Sequence record: PZ239915.1
Length of the DNA stretch: 36,820 nucleotides
DNA from: a phage
Reading direction: 5' to 3' (one strand)
Shown here: positions 2,448 to 18,207 of the stretch, piece after piece
Position numbering within the stretch: the first letter of the stretch is position 1
Layout: every line of letters begins with the position of its first letter
Notes under the pieces: generated by a model
The model's database searches: none
Seen by the model: the letters and a program-made list of their open reading frames with translations, nothing else
What the model was told of the DNA's origin: nothing
Made by a program: the position numbers and the translations under genes

Positions 2448-3578
2448 ATGGCAACTGCAAAAATCACTAACGAACAATTGCGCGAAGAACTGGCTAATGG
2501 CATGACCAACAAGGCAATCGCAGAGAAGTATGGAATGAACATTCGCAACGTTGAATTGCGTCGCAGTAAGCTGGCAAAATCAGGCGAGCTTCATGGAAAC
2601 CCTGGTATCAAGAAGTTAGTCCCTGACGGTTATATGGTCAAAGGAACTTCAACGATGATTGACGCGGCGGGTAATGAAAAGCTTCGCTGGGTTAAAACCT
2701 CTGTAGATAATGAGCGCCTTGAGGTTTTAATGGAGCAAGCTAGAGAGGCATTTTGTTCTGAGTTGCCAAAAGCAGATGCGGTCAGCCACTCAGGCAACGA
2801 AGTTAACTCTGAATTAATGACTCTTTACCCTATTTTCGATATCCATATCGGCATGATGGCGCATCGCCATGAATCTGGTGAGAATTATGACACTAACACG
2901 GCAGAGAAATTAATGGAATCATATTTCGACCATGCAATTTCTGTATCACCTGCGTCAGAGAAAGCCGTTGTTTTAGTTGGCGGCGACTTCCTTCACTCTG
3001 ACGGATTGGAAGCTGTAACCCCAGCGAGCGGACACTGCCTTGATCAGGATAGCCGGTATGCTAAGTTAGTTTATGTTGCGATTCGATCGATTCGTGCCGC
3101 GGTAGAGAAGATGCTTAAGAAGCATAAGAATGTCGAGATTCAGATTATAGAGGGAAATCATGACCAAAGCGGCATGATCTGGCTTCGCGCTGCAATGGCT
3201 GCATTTTATGAAAACGAGAATCGCGTGTTTGTTGATACCAGTCCAGCAATCATGCACAAGACGCGATTTGGCTCAACATTACTTGGTTACACGCATGGTC
3301 ACACAATGAAGAAAGCCGAGGGTCGACTCGCAGCAATGGCGACCGACTACCGCAAAGACTTTGGTGAGTGTGAGTTTGTTTACTGCCACTCCGGGCATTT
3401 TCACCATGCAACTGTTACAGAGTGCACACTTGGTATTGACGAGGTTCACCCAGCACTGGCCAGTAAGGACGCATATGCCGCACGTGGAGGTTGGCGCTCA
3501 TACCGTCAAGCGGCTGCGATAGTTTACCACAAGAATTTTGGCGAGGTTGGTCGCCATATTTACCGCCCAGGCATGTAA
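2448..3578 (+). CDS. calcineurin-like metallophosphoesterase with N-terminal HTH domain
   Basis: Phosphoesterase motifs seen directly: DIHIG, GGDFLHSD, EGNHD, GYTHGH, HSGHFHH. N-terminal TNKAIAEKYGMNIRNVELRR resembles a helix-turn-helix. Stop TAA lies in a promoter box. Confidence 0.75.
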   Translation: MATAKITNEQLREELANGMTNKAIAEKYGMNIRNVELRRSKLAKSGELHGNPGIKKLVPDGYMVKGTSTMIDAAGNEKLRWVKTSVDNERLEVLMEQAREAFCSELPKADAVSHSGNEVNSELMTLYPIFDIHIGMMAHRHESGENYDTNTAEKLMESYFDHAISVSPASEKAVVLVGGDFLHSDGLEAVTPASGHCLDQDSRYAKLVYVAIRSIRAAVEKMLKKHKNVEIQIIEGNHDQSGMIWLRAAMAAFYENENRVFVDTSPAIMHKTRFGSTLLGYTHGHTMKKAEGRLAAMATDYRKDFGECEFVYCHSGHFHHATVTECTLGIDEVHPALASKDAYAARGGWRSYRQAAAIVYHKNFGEVGRHIYRPGM

Positions 3579-3622
3579 ATAGCACATTTTGTTAATAAAG
3601 CCTCAAAGGATTGAGGCAAAAT
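3578..3622 (+). promoter_or_regulatory. conserved box variant (weak -10)
   Basis: AATAGCACATTTTGTTAA, 22 bp, CAAAAT; spacer contains a hairpin. Confidence 0.3.
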
Positions 3623-3652
3623 GAATAAACGATAACGAGATGAGGAGTTATA

Positions 3653-4126
3653 ATGATTTACGTATTTGATATTGACGGAACTATAGCTAATAATGAGCAT
3701 AGAAATCACCTTTTACCATCCAGTGACCTTCACTTGACTTCAAGTTGGAAGTATTACAATAAAGCCTGTTCTGGAGACTCACCAATAATCCCAATGATAA
3801 ACATGATGAACAAACTTGCGGAATTATGTCCTGTTTACATAATGACATCCAGAAGTGATGAAGTTGAATGGAGAACCCTTGAGTGGCTTCAGGATAATGA
3901 GGTTGAGTATGATTCTATATACATGAGAAGTCGATATGACAACCGAAAAGATTACAAAATAAAAGAGGAATGGCTTAATGAAATCAGTGGTGGCGATAAA
4001 GGAAGTGTGGTTATTTTTGAAGATAACCCACAAGTAATTAAGCACCTAAGAAGTTGCGGATACACCGTTATGGCTGTATGTGAATATGAAGAACTACCTA
4101 AAGATTGCGAATCTCACGGAGAATGA
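3653..4126 (+). CDS. HAD-superfamily phosphatase/nucleotidase-like protein
   Basis: N-terminal FDIDGTI (DxDGT, HAD motif I); GAGGAG RBS. Confidence 0.55.
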   Translation: MIYVFDIDGTIANNEHRNHLLPSSDLHLTSSWKYYNKACSGDSPIIPMINMMNKLAELCPVYIMTSRSDEVEWRTLEWLQDNEVEYDSIYMRSRYDNRKDYKIKEEWLNEISGGDKGSVVIFEDNPQVIKHLRSCGYTVMAVCEYEELPKDCESHGE

Positions 4127-7076: not shown

Positions 7077-8660
7077 TCACCCAAGCAATCTCGGATTAAT
7101 GTAAACTTTATCACCAATCAGGCACGTGTAGTTTTTCTCGTCAAGCATTGGCAGCAAGTGATCTTTAATCTTCGTCATTACCCCCGCCTGGGCTTCGAAA
7201 GGTTTAACCTTGCGCGCCGCCTCGTATAGGGAGCGAATACCTACTACGCCCTTCCCATTTTTGCCTTGCTTGATCAGTATGTCAATCAGCTTGTTCATCT
7301 CTGCACTGTCACCAGCGTGACCAGCGGCGTTAGCAGATGAAAGGTAAGTTTTGCTCAGTTCATTAAATATAATTACAGCCTCCTGCATGGTATCAAGCTC
7401 AATCTCCCTGGACTTCCGCGGACTCCCGCCGTTAGGGTTGAACCAGTTACGAACAGTATGAAGAACAGCCGCAATCCTGATGGCCTGTTTATCAAACTTA
7501 CCCAGCGCGCCTCGCAACATTGTATGTGAATACTTCCCGCCATCAGCAAGGTGAGGTTCCATCTCCTGACGTGCTCGGTTGAGATACTTCATCGCTGAGT
7601 TGCTTACTGTCAGCTTAACATCTTGCTCATTCATTATTTCGTGAACCAGGCGGAAGTAGTCAGCCTTTAGCCCACCATCAATAGGTTCGTAAGTTGAGTC
7701 TCCATTTTCATCAACGAATACACGCTCGCCCAGGAATGACTTTTCACGCACCAGCAGAAAACGTTCCGATACACCGATACCTCGCGCACCAGCATTCATG
7801 ATTGCGTTTATTGTCTCATCTTGCGCAATTACAGAGATGCATCCCATAGCGACGAAACTCATGTTGTTTTCTGCGTTCGCACGCGCAATGGACACGTTAC
7901 CAGCATCCCATGCTTTCAGCACAAGCTCGCTGTTCGTTTTCTTCGAGCCATCACCATAGGTCATACCTAGCAGAGAGTTCACGCTCGTTGCTTCATCAGA
8001 GATAACTGCGAAGTTGCCCTGGCGGTTGTTTATTCGCGCAAGACCTTCAGGCGTCGTATCTGATACTGGAAATACGATATCGCAAAGTTTCTCGAGTTTT
8101 TCCTCTAGTTCCTCTTTCTCTTCGAAGAGAGAAGCCATTTCTGAAGGTGATTTCTCCTGCTTCATCTCTTTGGATAATGCAGATAGTTTAGCCATGATCT
8201 TTTTGCGCTCACGCTTCCGCAACTCATTCAGTCGCTCAGTCTCAGCAATCATTGGAGCAATTGAAAGTGAGTTGATTGCTGATTTACCTGTCGATGGCGG
8301 CTGACTGGTTACGACGTATAGAGAGGTCGGTTGCTGGGTTCCGTGATACTCAACAGTAAATCGCCCCAGCATGGAGGCAGAAATACACCCCAGAAAGTGC
8401 ATATAAGCTGAAGACTCTGGAAATTGAACCGAACGAGCAATATTGGCTGACAGTTTACCAACAACGTCAATATCATTGCCGAGTGAGATTACCGGGTATT
8501 TGTCATTTGCTGCATCAATCTCGACCGGAGCCTTCCAGAATGATTGGGACTGGCGATAGCCATTGGCATTAATGGCGACTCGCAGTGGCGGGAGGTTGTC
8601 TGCGGCAGCAATTGCCATAACCTGTTCAACAGATAGTTTATCTTCGTTGAAATCAAACAT
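7077..8660 (-). CDS. hypothetical 527-aa protein with P-loop-like core
   Basis: Long ORF; deviant Walker A TSQPPSTGKS and Walker-B-like FAVISDEAT in the central region. N- and C-terminal ~45 and ~75 aa are paralogous to the 174-aa protein at 11389..11913. Confidence 0.7.
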   Translation of the reverse strand: MFDFNEDKLSVEQVMAIAAADNLPPLRVAINANGYRQSQSFWKAPVEIDAANDKYPVISLGNDIDVVGKLSANIARSVQFPESSAYMHFLGCISASMLGRFTVEYHGTQQPTSLYVVTSQPPSTGKSAINSLSIAPMIAETERLNELRKRERKKIMAKLSALSKEMKQEKSPSEMASLFEEKEELEEKLEKLCDIVFPVSDTTPEGLARINNRQGNFAVISDEATSVNSLLGMTYGDGSKKTNSELVLKAWDAGNVSIARANAENNMSFVAMGCISVIAQDETINAIMNAGARGIGVSERFLLVREKSFLGERVFVDENGDSTYEPIDGGLKADYFRLVHEIMNEQDVKLTVSNSAMKYLNRARQEMEPHLADGGKYSHTMLRGALGKFDKQAIRIAAVLHTVRNWFNPNGGSPRKSREIELDTMQEAVIIFNELSKTYLSSANAAGHAGDSAEMNKLIDILIKQGKNGKGVVGIRSLYEAARKVKPFEAQAGVMTKIKDHLLPMLDEKNYTCLIGDKVYINPRLLG

Positions 8661-10846: not shown

Positions 10847-11389
10847 ATGAATGAAGTAACGCTTGGTGAAGTAATCAGGAATATGGTAAGTAAAGCCATG
10901 GAGTCCAGCAGTGGTGAGTTTAAGGTTCCTGTAAGGGAAATATTCAAGGTGCTTAGAGGTCGGGATTATCCTGAGCTAAAGTATGATGTTGAAACTGATG
11001 AGATCATCAACCTTAAGGAGCGGTCAATTCCAGAATTGAAGAACTCATACATTTACAATACGGTATCAAGGATGCCTCAGCTAAGAGTTGCAGGAAAGCA
11101 TGCTAAGCACAAGATAATCTGGATTGATGATGATGGTGAGCAGACGAGTGCAAAGCAATTCGACGGTGACGGTGCAGATAAGTATCTTGTAATCCAGATC
11201 TGCGATGGTGAACATAAGAAGAGCGAGAGCGCCAGGCGAAAGAGAGATAGCGACGCTGCTGTTATTGAATCATTCAAGTCAAGACTAATGAAGGTAGTAC
11301 CTAGCGTTATGGACTTAGATGGTGAGCAGAAGGTTGGCGCAGAGATTGCTATCGGTAGATTTTATGATTTGATTAAGGATGCTAAATAA
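10847..11389 (+). CDS. hypothetical protein (180 aa)
   Basis: First ORF of the rightward unit after the control region; GAGG RBS; stop overlaps the next start. Confidence 0.55.
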   Translation: MNEVTLGEVIRNMVSKAMESSSGEFKVPVREIFKVLRGRDYPELKYDVETDEIINLKERSIPELKNSYIYNTVSRMPQLRVAGKHAKHKIIWIDDDGEQTSAKQFDGDGADKYLVIQICDGEHKKSESARRKRDSDAAVIESFKSRLMKVVPSVMDLDGEQKVGAEIAIGRFYDLIKDAK

Positions 11390-15183: not shown

Positions 15184-15240
15184 GTTAACAATCTGGTTTG
15201 TCGCAGGGCTTATTACTTGGGCTTACTTTATGGTGATGGC

Positions 15241-15468
15241 ATGAGAACATTGAGACAGATTTTACACGGTTGCAAGAAGCATCACTACGTTTACTTTCGT
15301 GACATTCAGTGGTTTGAGGATGCTCATTGCATATATGGTTACAAAACTAAGCTAATATGCAAGAAATGCAGGCACGTCGAGAACAGCCAGGTGGATATGA
15401 TGATTTGCCGCAGCACACTTGACGACATTGCGTATGGAAAGCTCAAACATCCACCAGTTAAACCGTAA
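15241..15468 (+). CDS. hypothetical Cys/His-rich protein (75 aa)
   Basis: Track ORF 15217..15468 trimmed to the ATG at 15241 after GGTGATGG; C-x15-HC...CKKC...C pattern suggests a zinc ribbon. Confidence 0.4.
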   Translation: MRTLRQILHGCKKHHYVYFRDIQWFEDAHCIYGYKTKLICKKCRHVENSQVDMMICRSTLDDIAYGKLKHPPVKP

Positions 15469-15730
15469 TTGTTAAAAAGAGCTTGCATCACTGACCGGAA
15501 TTATCTAACATTAATCACGTAGGCAAACGAGCCATCCAAGATGGAACGGCGCACGGAGCGCAACTACTAAGTCCGTTGCTCATTAAGTAGCGCATGCGGC
15601 ATTAAGACCTAGCGCAAATAGGCAAAGTAAGACGACTGTAGGTCATTGTCACCTCATCGCTTGAACGCGGAGTCCCAGATTAACCGGCTGTATCAGGCAG
15701 CCCCGGAGCCGTAACCGGGATTCATTCAAA

Positions 15731-15808
15731 GCTCTGCTAGCTCAATTGGATAGCAGCAACGACCTTCTAAGTCGTAGGTTACTGGTTCGAATCCAGTGCG
15801 GAGCGCCA
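15731..15808 (+). tRNA. tRNA-Arg (anticodon UCU), with atypical D-arm
   Basis: Hand-folded cloverleaf: 7-bp acceptor stem (one G-U), U8, D-loop with GG, anticodon stem ACGAC/GTCGT with loop CTTCTAA (U33, anticodon TCT, A37), T-stem ACTGG/CCAGT with loop TTCGAAT, discriminator G and encoded CCA. D-stem has only 3 good pairs. Confidence 0.75.
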
Positions 15809-15823
15809 ATAAAGGAGTTCATT

Positions 15824-16006
15824 ATGTGGGATGTGAAGTTGTCCATTCGCTTAATGGGCCGCTCGTGCAAGAATTGCGCTCAAGACTACATCGCGTCAGT
15901 TGCCGCAATCAGCGCTGAGGATGCGGTAGCGAAAGTAAAAGAGATGTCAGGTGCTGACCCTGATACTAACAAATTCCTGGTAGCTTACGTTCGTGAGCGA
16001 AAGTAA
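15824..16006 (+). CDS. hypothetical protein (60 aa)
   Basis: Track ORF 15746..16006 overlaps the tRNA; trimmed to the ATG at 15824 after AAAGGAG. Confidence 0.45.
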   Translation: MWDVKLSIRLMGRSCKNCAQDYIASVAAISAEDAVAKVKEMSGADPDTNKFLVAYVRERK

Positions 16007-16050
16007 AAAGTGTTATACCCTCGTTTAAGTTTCATCTCTCTCGTTGTTTT

Positions 16051-16076
16051 AGCCCTCGCTTGAGGGCTTTTTTTCG
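16051..16076 (+). terminator. rho-independent terminator
   Basis: AGCCCTC/GAGGGCT stem, GCTT loop, 7-T run. Confidence 0.65.
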
Positions 16077-16079
16077 TCT

Positions 16080-16094
16080 GCAATATGCTATAAT
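16080..16094 (+). promoter_or_regulatory. extended -10 promoter candidate upstream of terminase small subunit
   Basis: TGCTATAAT directly after a terminator. Confidence 0.35.
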
Positions 16095-16117
16095 CTGGAA
16101 TCAACAAAGGAGGACTT

Positions 16118-16624
16118 ATGAGTAAAGCAGCATTAAAGATGGGTGAGGGAAATTTCAAGGCGCTCTACAACAAAAAATATGGTGATATTGCTATGGTGGC
16201 AATTAACCGCAAGTACACGCCTGAGGAAGTGTTCGATTTCTCTGTTCGATACTTCTCTTGGGCAGAAAGTGAGGCAATCAAGGCAATTGAGACGGCAGCA
16301 TTCCAGGGTGTGGTTAGTGAAAGCCTGGTGCACAAACCTCGAGTGTTCACATTAACTGGGTTGGCACTATTCATGGGTGTCAATATCAATAGGTTCGCTC
16401 GCTGGCGTACTGAGGCTGGATACTCTGATGTGATGGAATTCATTGACAACGTAATCTACGAGCAGAAATATCAGCTTGGCGTCGCGGGCATAATCAACTC
16501 AACTATCGTTGGTAAAGAGCTTGGCATTGATAAGCCGCAGGAGATTAATATTAGCAACAACTCAACAGCTAACGATGTTGACAGTATGAAGGAAGCTCTG
16601 GAATCTGTAATTAGCAAGCTATAA
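16118..16624 (+). CDS. terminase small subunit (putative)
   Basis: 168-aa ORF immediately upstream of the large terminase; HTH-like TLTGLALFMGVNINRFARW; preceded by a terminator and an extended -10. Confidence 0.6.
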   Translation: MSKAALKMGEGNFKALYNKKYGDIAMVAINRKYTPEEVFDFSVRYFSWAESEAIKAIETAAFQGVVSESLVHKPRVFTLTGLALFMGVNINRFARWRTEAGYSDVMEFIDNVIYEQKYQLGVAGIINSTIVGKELGIDKPQEINISNNSTANDVDSMKEALESVISKL

Positions 16625-16641: not shown

Positions 16642-18207
16642 ATGTCTTTAGTATGGGAAGAAATGACCATTCAGGAAAAGATGGCCGTTAAGGCGATATC
16701 AGAACACAGCTTCGAGGGCTTTCTTCGTTGCTGGTTCCAGATCACGCAAGGCGAGCGATACATCCCTAACTGGCATCACAAGTACTTGTGCAGAATAATT
16801 GACGAGATTATCGCAGGAGAGCGCAAGGACACCATCATTAACATAGCACCAGGAAGCGGAAAGACGGAAATTGCCTCAATCCACTTCCCGGCCTATTCGA
16901 TGGTTAAGCTTAGGAAGGTGCGCAACCTTAACATCTCTTTTGCTGACTCCCTGGTTAAGCGTAACTCGAAGCGAGTACGTGACCTTATCAAGTCTCAAGA
17001 ATTTCAGTCACTCTGGCCATGCAAGTTTGGCACTTGCAAAGACGATGAGCTTCAGGTTCTTGATGAGAGTGGCAAGGTTAGATTTGAGTCAATATCAAAG
17101 GCGGCTGGAGGCCAGATTACTGGCGCTCGCGGTGGGTACATAACCGAAACATACAGCGGAGCCGTTCTTTTGGATGACTTTGACAAACCCGCAGATATGT
17201 TATCAGCAGTGTACCGCTCGAATAATCACGTAATGCTTAAAAATACGATTCGCTCACGTCGAGCCAGTTCTGTAAAAGGAAAAGCGACACCAATCATTTC
17301 GATACAGCAGCGGCTTCACGTCAATGACTCAACCTATTTCATGATGGAAGGCGGCATGGGTATAGAATTCGATTTGATTAAGATACCAGCATTAGTTACT
17401 GAGGATTACATTGATTCACTTCCTGACTGGATTAAAGATCAGTTTGCTGAGGACGTACTAAGCAGCGAATACATTGAGCGAGATGGCGTAAAGTACTACA
17501 GCTACTTTCCTAAAAAGGAATCCGTAAACGACCTGGTGGCAATGTGGGATAGCGACCCGTACACATTCCTTAGTCAATATCAGCAGGAGCCAGTAGCGCT
17601 GGGTGGCAACCTAATTAACGTGGACTGGTTCCAGAGAATCAGTGATACGTTCAGACCTCCAGCTAAGTACGACTATCGATTCATAACTTGCGATACCGCA
17701 ATGACCACTAAAAGTTACAGCGACTTCTCTGTTCTTCAGTTGTGGGGCTATAAAGATGCTAAGATTTACCTTATTGATCAGCGCAGGGGTAAATGGGAGG
17801 CCCCAGAGTTGGAGGCTGAACTGCTGGACTTCGAGAAGAAATCAAGGGCAACCAGTCAGTCAGATGGTATCCTCAGAAAGATTATTATCGAGAAGAAAGC
17901 GTCTGGTATAGGCCTGATTCAATCAGCTGGCAGGGTTATGCGAACACCGATAGAGCCATACGTACCGGATAATGACAAGCTAACCAGGGTGATGAGTGCA
18001 CTACCACAGATTAAGGCTGGTAACGTAGTTCTTCCAGAGTCATCGCCGTGGCTAAACGGATTGCTCACTGAGGTTGCGGCTTTTACGGCAGATGACTCGC
18101 ATAAGCACGACGACCAAATTGACTGTCTAACAATGGCGGCAAACCTTGTACTTAACATCGCGGATGATCCTAAGTCGAGACTGATGCGCATAGCTGGAAT
18201 GAAATAG
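16642..18207 (+). CDS. terminase large subunit
   Basis: 521 aa; Walker A APGSGKT in the N-terminal ATPase region, acidic nuclease-type C-terminal half; position before the portal. Confidence 0.85.
   Translation: MSLVWEEMTIQEKMAVKAISEHSFEGFLRCWFQITQGERYIPNWHHKYLCRIIDEIIAGERKDTIINIAPGSGKTEIASIHFPAYSMVKLRKVRNLNISFADSLVKRNSKRVRDLIKSQEFQSLWPCKFGTCKDDELQVLDESGKVRFESISKAAGGQITGARGGYITETYSGAVLLDDFDKPADMLSAVYRSNNHVMLKNTIRSRRASSVKGKATPIISIQQRLHVNDSTYFMMEGGMGIEFDLIKIPALVTEDYIDSLPDWIKDQFAEDVLSSEYIERDGVKYYSYFPKKESVNDLVAMWDSDPYTFLSQYQQEPVALGGNLINVDWFQRISDTFRPPAKYDYRFITCDTAMTTKSYSDFSVLQLWGYKDAKIYLIDQRRGKWEAPELEAELLDFEKKSRATSQSDGILRKIIIEKKASGIGLIQSAGRVMRTPIEPYVPDNDKLTRVMSALPQIKAGNVVLPESSPWLNGLLTEVAAFTADDSHKHDDQIDCLTMAANLVLNIADDPKSRLMRIAGMK

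Follow-up and report, generated by a model that had tools for sequence, protein, structure and literature searches.

The 36.8-kb stretch of phage DNA analysed here (the window) belongs to a Braunvirinae (Rtp/DTL-like) coliphage and carries, directly in front of its tRNA-Arg(UCU) gene (15731..15808), what appears from sequence comparison to be a member of an apparently undescribed structured RNA family, distributed across the sampled genera of Drexlerviridae. The family core, as read from the alignments, is composed of a 13-nt single-stranded 5' end, the hairpins P1 and P2, a variable middle, and P7 followed by a terminal P8 with a ..CGUAA loop. That this is a real, transcribed and structured RNA family can be stated with high confidence. 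The initial annotation had noted that the region upstream of the tRNA contains no open reading frame (ORF) and had offered a small RNA or a decayed tRNA array as explanations. Indeed, no ORF longer than 27 aa is present on either strand of 15495-15730, and the small-RNA proposal was borne out but understated the case, as the RNA is structured, occurs family-wide and has its own promoter. The parts of the RNA in the window are the following:

15519..15730, + strand: structured non-coding leader RNA of about 212 nt, the 5' end placed (+/-2 nt) from promoter spacing and the 3' end from predicted RNase P cleavage
15519..15531, + strand: single-stranded conserved 5' segment GUAGGCAAACGAG (family consensus GUnnACAnAAGAG), from the alignment to R1, a covariance model of the 5' domain
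15532..15544, + strand: P1 hairpin CCAUC-CAA-GAUGG
15549..15561, + strand: P2 hairpin GCGC-ACGGA-GCGC; its loop is conserved (RCGnnn in the family, GCGAUA being the commonest form)
15573..15599, + strand: P4 (CCGU 15573-76 / GCGG 15596-99), which encloses P5; a Braunvirinae-specific middle module
inside P4, + strand: P5 (GCU 15578-80 / AGC 15589-91) with loop CAUUAAGU, invariant in Braunvirinae
15608..15622, + strand: P6, a possible, weak hairpin CCUA-GCGCAAA-UAGG
15624..15677 (approximate limits), + strand: stretch containing ACGACTGTAGGTC, a gap in all 14 aligned relatives
15687..15701, + strand: P7 hairpin GCUGU-AUCAG-GCAGC, 3/5 pairs compensatory, preceding P8 in other genera too
15702..15719, + strand: P8 hairpin CCCGG-AGCCGUAA-CCGGG with loop motif ..CGUAA, 2/5 pairs compensatory within Braunvirinae

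The evidence for this structure comes from comparison and not from the window sequence alone, since the single-sequence folding energy of the window leader is no better than that of shuffled sequences (z = +0.13 and -0.11) and the z-scores were uninformative for the window. A blastn search with the leader matched 89 phage records, and in all 15 loci that were fetched the leader lies directly 5' of a tRNA-Arg (UCU or CCU). The leader alignment shows conserved blocks, hairpins that changed their sequence but kept their pairing, and different hairpin modules inserted between the blocks. RNAalifold predicts 29 pairs for the Braunvirinae leader, ten of them with compensatory changes, and in the whole-leader Braunvirinae alignment (A1) 97.7% of the cells of a 33-pair structure pair, with a covariation of 0.268 vs 0.112 when shuffled (0/500 shuffles), which is abolished by sliding the partners. 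For the 5' domain, the R1 model alignment of 48 distinct sequences (A5) has 96% of cells paired, compensatory changes in 8/9 pairs and a covariation of 0.711 vs 0.188 shuffled (0/500 shuffles; slid controls <=0.087). G.U pairs are frequent in both alignments, and therefore it is the RNA of the + strand that is under selection, not the DNA.

P1 is compensatory in all four modelled pairs among the 48 sequences, and within Braunvirinae it occurs as CCAUC/GAUGG, GCCAC/GUGGC and CUAGC/GCUAG. P2 is invariant within Braunvirinae, and family-wide four of its five pairs are changed on both sides. For P4, the RNAalifold pair counts give a G-C that becomes A-U in two sequences and a U.G position that is also found as C-G (four) and U-A (three). 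The hairpin GGCTG-TATCAGG-CAGCC (15686-15702), pointed out by the initial annotation, is present and contains P7, with CUG/CAG replaced by UCG/CGA in 7 of 15 sequences. In P8, about 12 different stems surround the CGUA(A/C) loop motif among 16 distinct sequences, and ..CGUAA recurs throughout the family (in AACCGUAA, AGCCGUAA, AGACCCGUAA and other loops); the window likewise has a terminal P8 with this loop, preceded by P7. On this comparison the predicted helices P1, P4, P7 and P8 are supported within Braunvirinae, where P2 and P5 are invariant, while P6 shows breaks and no covariation, is missing in TR2 and ES, and is unsupported. When six diverse members were folded by minimum free energy (MFE), P1 and P2 formed every time, and P7 and P8 in the majority. 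In the 5' segment, G1, U2, A5, C6, A9 and A12 are invariant and A10, G11 and G13 nearly so (alignment A4). Between P6 and P7, Rtp and AugustePiccard have a different sequence where the window has 15624-15677, and a query of 15615-15690 gave no blastn match in 50,697 phage records. The leader of phage A110b carries a tandem duplication of its 3' module, P7-P8 (locus L007, about 1000-1026 and upstream).

The RNA extends well beyond the close relatives of the window. With the leader of phage ES, the most divergent Braunvirinae member, as query, blastn reached Nouzillyvirus and Eclunavirus; ESCO41 carries the RNA together with tRNA-Arg, and CJ19 and Enterobacter phage Phc carry it without a tRNA. 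The 60-aa ORF that follows the tRNA in the window (ORF60) served as anchor for fetching six loci, from five further genera and a Klebsiella phage record, plus 47 loci from IMG/VR. Together, these searches yielded divergent copies that have the promoter, 5' motif, P1, P2 and P8 in common, in Nouzillyvirus, Eclunavirus, Vilniusvirus, Tlsvirus, Sertoctavirus, Warwickvirus, Tunavirus and the Klebsiella phage record. Nearly all ORF60-anchored loci share the order TTGACg-N9-CTGATTGG-TAnnnT, 7 nt, GU(A/G/U)(A/U)ACAnAAGAG, P1, AACGC, P2, an A-rich linker and the 3' domain. Homologues are thus present at the same position in every Drexlerviridae genus sampled: the RNA begins about 7 nt after a sigma-70 -10 element, on the same strand and 5' of ORF60 and the gene for the small terminase (TerS), and so it does in the window.

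R1, which was built from 23 sequences without any from Braunvirinae, matched every non-Braunvirinae Drexlerviridae-type locus searched (39-71 bits) as well as 12 Braunvirinae leaders (E 4e-7 to 1e-3), with the close relatives of the window at 19-31 bits. In the window its best match, searched over the 36.8 kb with filters off, is 15519-15566 (E 0.0015); a second match at 11208 lies inside an ORF and was rejected as chance. The complete TLS genome (L221) has a single strong match, at 7824, in the unannotated gap between gp24 and gp25, and R1 had no match in 77 other viral loci that had been picked for a loose pattern of promoter and 5' motif. The leader has no match in Rfam 15 at the gathering score, and none at E<=10 was found in 15300-16150 besides the tRNA, with chance matches elsewhere; likewise, at E<=1 no family matches the RNA in any of 14 diverse homologous loci. 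The Rfam models considered include T-box, C4, Y-RNA-like families and ribozymes such as hammerhead and HDV, none of which matches the leader. The refuting outcome named by the initial annotation, an upstream region without any covariance-model match, thus did occur with Rfam, because the family is uncurated, not because structure is absent. No blastn match to the leader exists in 5,426 complete E. coli genomes, and thus no host or prophage origin is visible. An exact 16-mer scan of IMG/VR returned known isolates and chance matches only, and a degenerate scan for promoter plus 5' motif was swamped by chance, with R1 retaining three Drexlerviridae contigs only. The RNA is not described in the literature searched; it may be an unnamed entry in a survey of phage structured RNAs, the supplement of which lay outside the search (PMC10690425). 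The MSK paper reports 'no sRNA' (PMC8421802), and the TLS re-annotation lists neither the leader promoter nor the RNA (PMC11447400).

The 3' end of the RNA is reached in more than one way. In type A loci (Tlsvirus, Tunavirus, Sertoctavirus and the window) P8 has 4-6 bp and a short tail, followed by a Shine-Dalgarno (SD) sequence or a tRNA, whereas type B loci (Warwickvirus atuna and many IMG/VR contigs) have a 9-bp hairpin with the CGUAA motif in its internal loop and U5-8 behind it, some of the U-tracts being interrupted. The type B terminators were recognised by eye and from MFE folds, as their loops exceed the limit of the scan tool, which hence does not call them. P8 of the window lacks the U-run of an intrinsic terminator or attenuator: it is followed by AUUCAUUCAAAG and then the tRNA, and the terminator scan makes no call. 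Judging from what follows P8 in each lineage, the 3' end just behind this hairpin thus seems to arise in different ways. The gene immediately 3' of the RNA varies as well, being a tRNA, a 53-aa ORF, a 69-77-aa ORF or ORF60. Of the 47 IMG/VR loci, 38 have no tRNA and nine have one between the RNA and ORF60 (eight Arg-UCU, one Ser-GCU). The tRNA genes that occupy the slot after the RNA differ between phages and include Arg(CCU), Ser(GCU) and an Arg(UCU) gene of 75 nt that is distinct from the one in the window; all of them decode AGN codons (L012/L013/L014, i.e. TR2, Rao1 and ES; L010/L015, i.e. MM01 and IME542; L048, i.e. NBD2, 694-781). The insertion is always after P8 and never within the RNA, with a gap of 8 nt in NBD2 and 11 nt in the window. 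As far as this distribution tells, the tRNA is a lineage-specific passenger and the RNA is independent of it. In UALMA_PCEc3 (L001, 1812-1910) a second tRNA-like gene of 99 nt, annotated as tRNA-Ile and scoring 39.4 bits with Rfam, directly follows tRNA-Arg; it is not called by ARAGORN and may have an intron or a long arm.

The elements that surround the RNA in the window are:

15470-15480: A-rich stretch TTGTTAAAAAG, just 5' of the leader promoter
15483..15511, + strand: promoter read from the sequence, with -35 TTGCAT (15483-88), a 17-nt spacer and -10 TAACAT (15506-11)
15491-98: octamer CTGACCGG, inside the spacer of the leader promoter
15731..15808, + strand: tRNA-Arg(UCU), with anticodon 15766-68, D-arm 15740-57 and CCA encoded at 15806-15808
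15824..16006, + strand: ORF60, phrog_2919, function unknown, with SD AAGGAG (15812-17)
16051..16075, + strand: intrinsic terminator found by the terminator scan, closing the leader-tRNA-ORF60 unit

The promoter TTGCAT-17-TAACAT is near-invariant in Braunvirinae although the upstream ORFs differ. In other genera the homologous promoter reads TTGACG-17-TAGATT with TG, or TTGACA-17-TAGCAT, and ends 7 nt before the RNA start; the promoter scan calls two of these loci (9/12 with TG, and 10/12). The octamer in the spacer conforms to CTGAYYGG (mostly CTGATTGG or CTGACTGG, in TLS usually followed by T), which is 6- to 9-fold over-represented and occurs on both strands, with 22 copies in the window vs 3.35 expected and 29 vs 3.39 in TLS, neither count being reached in 100 shuffles. 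Sites in the window include 312, 2195, 15491, 27535 and 34524, and in TLS 8 of the 29 copies are intergenic vs 8.7% of the genome. In most other genera the octamer directly abuts the -10 element and supplies the TGn of an extended -10. The A-rich stretch TTGTTAAAAAG is similar to the second (3') half of a 21-nt repeat that TLS carries between its genes (aaATAGCACnnnTTGnTAAAA, PMC11447400), and several of these repeats adjoin CTGATTGG and a -10-like hexamer.

The tRNA itself is a genuine, ordinary and already known rare-codon tRNA. ARAGORN finds a single tRNA in the whole window, tRNA-Arg(tct) at exactly 15731-15808, and the Rfam tRNA model (RF00005) scores it at 57.4 bits vs a gathering score of 29, so that the gene call of the initial annotation holds. 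Its weakened D-stem is real in part: GCUC (15740-43) lies opposite G-C-AGC (15753-57), which the Rfam alignment renders as three Watson-Crick pairs and a flagged C.C, yet four pairs with C15754 as a single bulged base are equally valid, and the score stays normal. The canonical 4-bp D-stem, which does not define function, is thus absent from the window and present in Rtp (GAGC, without the extra base); the extra base is C in most relatives and A in DTL, at a cost of about 8 bits in the Rfam tRNA model (Rtp 65.2, window 57.4, DTL 55.5). Since the base varies or is absent among relatives and the scores stay at 55-65, the odd D-arm reflects, on this comparison, the insertion of a single base that an otherwise conserved gene tolerates, and not decay, with no demonstrated consequence. 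A20, C35 and U36 are the identity elements of arginyl-tRNA synthetase, and these positions can be read in the tRNA sequence, where the D-loop (..GGAUA) keeps A20. Among the 32 ORFs of the window, AGA and AGG amount to 11.4 and 8.5 per 1000 codons and together to 41% of the Arg codons; their distribution is uneven, with a concentration in tail genes and none in several ORFs. AGA and AGG are the rarest Arg codons in E. coli, and their heavy use by the phage therefore makes codon supply, as the initial annotation had proposed, a sufficient rationale for the tRNA. The same rationale was proposed for a tRNA of phage SU57 (PMC7718038), and a phage-borne tRNA-Arg was discussed for MSK (PMC8421802). 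ARAGORN and Rfam contradict the claim of the latter paper that Rtp and DTL lack a tRNA, since tRNA-Arg genes are present but unannotated in L009 (Rtp, 993-1069) and L004 (DTL, 1982-2059), as well as in L005, L007, L008, L013, L014 and L015.

How the RNA works is best approached through the unit in which it lies. We lean, by a small measure, towards 15483-16075 being one sigma-70 unit of promoter, ~212-nt RNA, tRNA, ORF60 and terminator, from which the RNA would be released by RNase P as a discrete molecule acting on its own. Host RNA polymerase would transcribe the unit, with the tRNA using the promoter of the RNA and decoding AGA, and probably AGG, for a phage heavy in these codons. The RNase P cut at 15730/15731 that makes the 5' end of the tRNA would simultaneously free the leader, which would end just after P8, and in other genera the equivalent 3' end would be provided by an intrinsic terminator built on P8. 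The released RNA might then act with its 5' segment, P2 loop and P8 loop as contact surfaces for a protein or another RNA, a proposal that, taken by itself, is tentative and falls just short of even chances. A discrete, self-acting RNA is favoured because the lineages make the 3' end after P8 by different means and because the downstream gene varies. The comparison establishes the homology, structure, strand and position of the RNA along with its independence from the tRNA, and we infer its transcription start, release by RNase P, stability and action in trans.

Several observations weigh against this picture. The window promoter matches the consensus at only 7/12 positions and was missed by the promoter scan. 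In type A loci without a tRNA the SD directly follows P8 without a terminator, so that the RNA is formally a 5' UTR (untranslated region), which fits a role in cis too. Within the window, sites complementary to the 5' segment are not in excess (10 vs 8.1 expected), and neither a target nor a partner or ligand of the RNA emerged from the analysis; for the tertiary contacts considered (J1/2 ACG or the P2 loop with CGU of the P8 loop; 5' UGAA with 3' UUCA) no clean covariation was seen by eye. The R1 score of the window is modest (16.8 bits), the weakest Braunvirinae scores are 12.3 and 8.8 bits, and L008 and L037 have no match at E<=1; the placement of these weakest Braunvirinae in the family therefore also rests on synteny, intermediates and shared architecture.

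The main rival is a leader acting in cis, which in the nascent transcript would gate the passage of polymerase to the ORFs further downstream and to the genes for packaging and morphogenesis, either like an attenuator or riboswitch with P8 as terminator, or as a processive antiterminator (put-like, or as in lambda PR'-6S RNA-tR'). The RNA is always promoter-proximal and heads the block ORF60 ... TerS-TerL, a further terminator precedes TerS, and the promoter spacer contains the conserved octamer. In type B loci the hairpin and U-run stand directly before the next SD, leaving no space for another promoter, and therefore downstream expression there needs read-through; in addition, only three sigma-70-like promoters were proposed for the whole TLS genome (PMC11447400). 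However, in the window and all Braunvirinae the tRNA separates the RNA from the ORF, and RNase P, by severing the RNA from the elongating complex and the mRNA, would therefore exclude translational control and disfavour tethered antitermination in this subfamily. P8 of the window has no U-run, the gene directly downstream varies, and the conserved P8 loop behaves as a functional core in both types, not as a freely varying expression platform. As for a riboswitch, junctions and loops are conserved, but no known Rfam class is matched, and no conserved alternative helix that could serve as antiterminator was seen in the alignments. Taken together, a cis-acting leader is a serious but doubtful explanation. 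More specific roles are rather improbable: as a new kind of promoter-proximal RNA it would regulate the early-to-late switch of T1-like phages by sensing a phage or host factor, with P8 gating the packaging and morphogenesis genes, or it would be a new kind of abundant phage RNA that captures a host protein, for example polymerase, a ribonuclease or a defence factor.

Precursor leaders are normal for tRNA genes, and the RNA is co-transcribed with the tRNA, so the region might be a mere leader or spacer that aids transcription and maturation of the tRNA without a function of its own. This is very improbable and already contradicted, since most Drexlerviridae without a tRNA at the locus have the same RNA, its pairing conserved through compensatory changes, and 212 nt with about seven hairpins are far above a normal tRNA leader. 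Equally hard to sustain is a role at the DNA level, as an operator, a pac site or an origin of replication, with inverted repeats that would be incidental to RNA. The location about 400 bp before the small terminase gene would suit it, as T1-like phages package from a pac site (PMC11447400), and so would the genome-wide over-representation of the CTGAYYGG octamer of the promoter spacer. However, the stems retain their pairing through free changes of sequence, and G.U pairs are numerous, in place of which the opposite strand or a DNA cruciform would have C-A mismatches; equal conservation of structure on both strands was not seen. Moreover, conservation begins at the promoter and the conserved RNA begins 7 nt after its -10. 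The decayed tRNA array of the initial annotation has next to no probability left: the locus does attract tRNAs, such as the second tRNA-like gene of PCEc3, but no tRNA-model match exists in 15469-15730 at E<=10, ARAGORN calls one tRNA only, the leader helices form no cloverleaves, the homologues in the tRNA-less phages, which are most Drexlerviridae, keep the same non-tRNA architecture, and the supposed anticodon-arm remnant ACGACTGTAGGTC (15633-45) is a likeness no greater than chance, within the stretch that is absent from all 14 relatives and unmatched in the phage collection.

With 15200-16100 as query, megablast matched 87 phage records, nearly all from Escherichia phages, and the matches that were fetched and classified are Drexlerviridae, mostly Braunvirinae (DTL, Rtp, JeanPiccard, RobRod40). 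The tRNA/leader locus lies about 400 bp 5' of the small terminase gene (16118), with the large terminase at 16642. ORF60 has tblastn homologues in 787 phage records and marks the locus family-wide; it has no Pfam match, and phrog_2919 is its sole assignment. Terminators before TerS are also present in MM01 (record annotation) and L072. In the window an extended -10 TGCTATAAT (16086-94) comes right after the strong terminator (16051-16075); it lies 24 nt ahead of the small terminase start, and the terminase operon may thus have its own promoter. The ORF upstream of the leader (15217-15468) resembles a TR2 protein annotated as 'transcriptional repressor' and was set aside, as it is not kept beside the RNA in other phages. 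PsgS01F (H12, labelled a Pseudomonas phage) and A110b (H71, labelled a Campylobacter phage) carry the E. coli Braunvirinae locus; the length (44,679 bp) and match statistics of the former are identical to those of coliphage UALMA_PCEc3, the latter is flagged UNVERIFIED, and mislabelling or contamination is likely in both. In TLS (L221) the early region includes stp (activator of the anticodon nuclease PrrC; 1865-1945) and a polynucleotide kinase (3132-3695), as annotated, which represent tRNA-damage/repair biology in an early block shared with the RNA/tRNA locus.

Among the phages of E. coli and Klebsiella, the T1-like phages (Drexlerviridae) belong to the most common, and they are present in therapy collections. 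To our knowledge, essentially nothing is known about how they program host RNA polymerase. A covarying RNA, conserved across the genera sampled, that is located right in front of the packaging genes and has a promoter to itself offers a concrete handle on their biology that can be tested by deletion, and the repeated insertion of tRNAs at one spot after the RNA is relevant to how phages acquire and express tRNAs. The annotation is also corrected, as public records leave the gap empty or place spurious ORFs in it. Open questions, such as the shut-off of host syntheses, are posed by the TLS re-annotation (PMC11447400).

Among known systems, the tRNA of the window corresponds to E. coli argU and the phage-encoded tRNA-Arg(UCU) of T4, Shiga-toxin phages and many T1-like phages, with which it shares the anticodon, the encoded CCA and the codon-compensation rationale, and which are annotated in relatives. 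Its anticodon stem-loop ACGACCUUCUAAGUCGU is presumably that of E. coli argU, whereas the extra D-arm base C15754, absent in Rtp, distinguishes it from argU-type tRNAs. The RNAs matured by RNase P, namely C4 of P1/P7, CI of P4 and the small stable RNAs of the T4 tRNA cluster, as well as MALAT1-mascRNA, offer an analogy in their RNase P-made end beside a tRNA or tRNA-like fold and in their co-transcription with a tRNA; by contrast, the leader has no tRNA-like fold and no Rfam match, and most family members have no adjoining tRNA. The put RNA of HK022, a factor-independent antiterminator, may be likened to the leader in that two promoter-proximal hairpins a few nt apart (here P1 and P2) lie 5' of terminators, but the cut made by RNase P at the tRNA speaks against a tethered mechanism for the window phage. 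Lambda PR'-6S RNA-tR', from which the sRNA StxS is derived (PMC7547250), would be comparable in that a constitutive promoter heading the late/packaging genes gives rise to a short non-coding RNA and, for the type B genera, in the intrinsic terminator just before the next gene. It has no sequence similarity to the leader, whose body folds into several conserved hairpins; neither a Q-like protein nor a qut site was identified, and P8 of the window is followed by a tRNA, not a terminator. With these differences, the lambda 6S leader, put RNA and the RNase P-matured C4/CI RNAs may be regarded as the nearest functional analogies.

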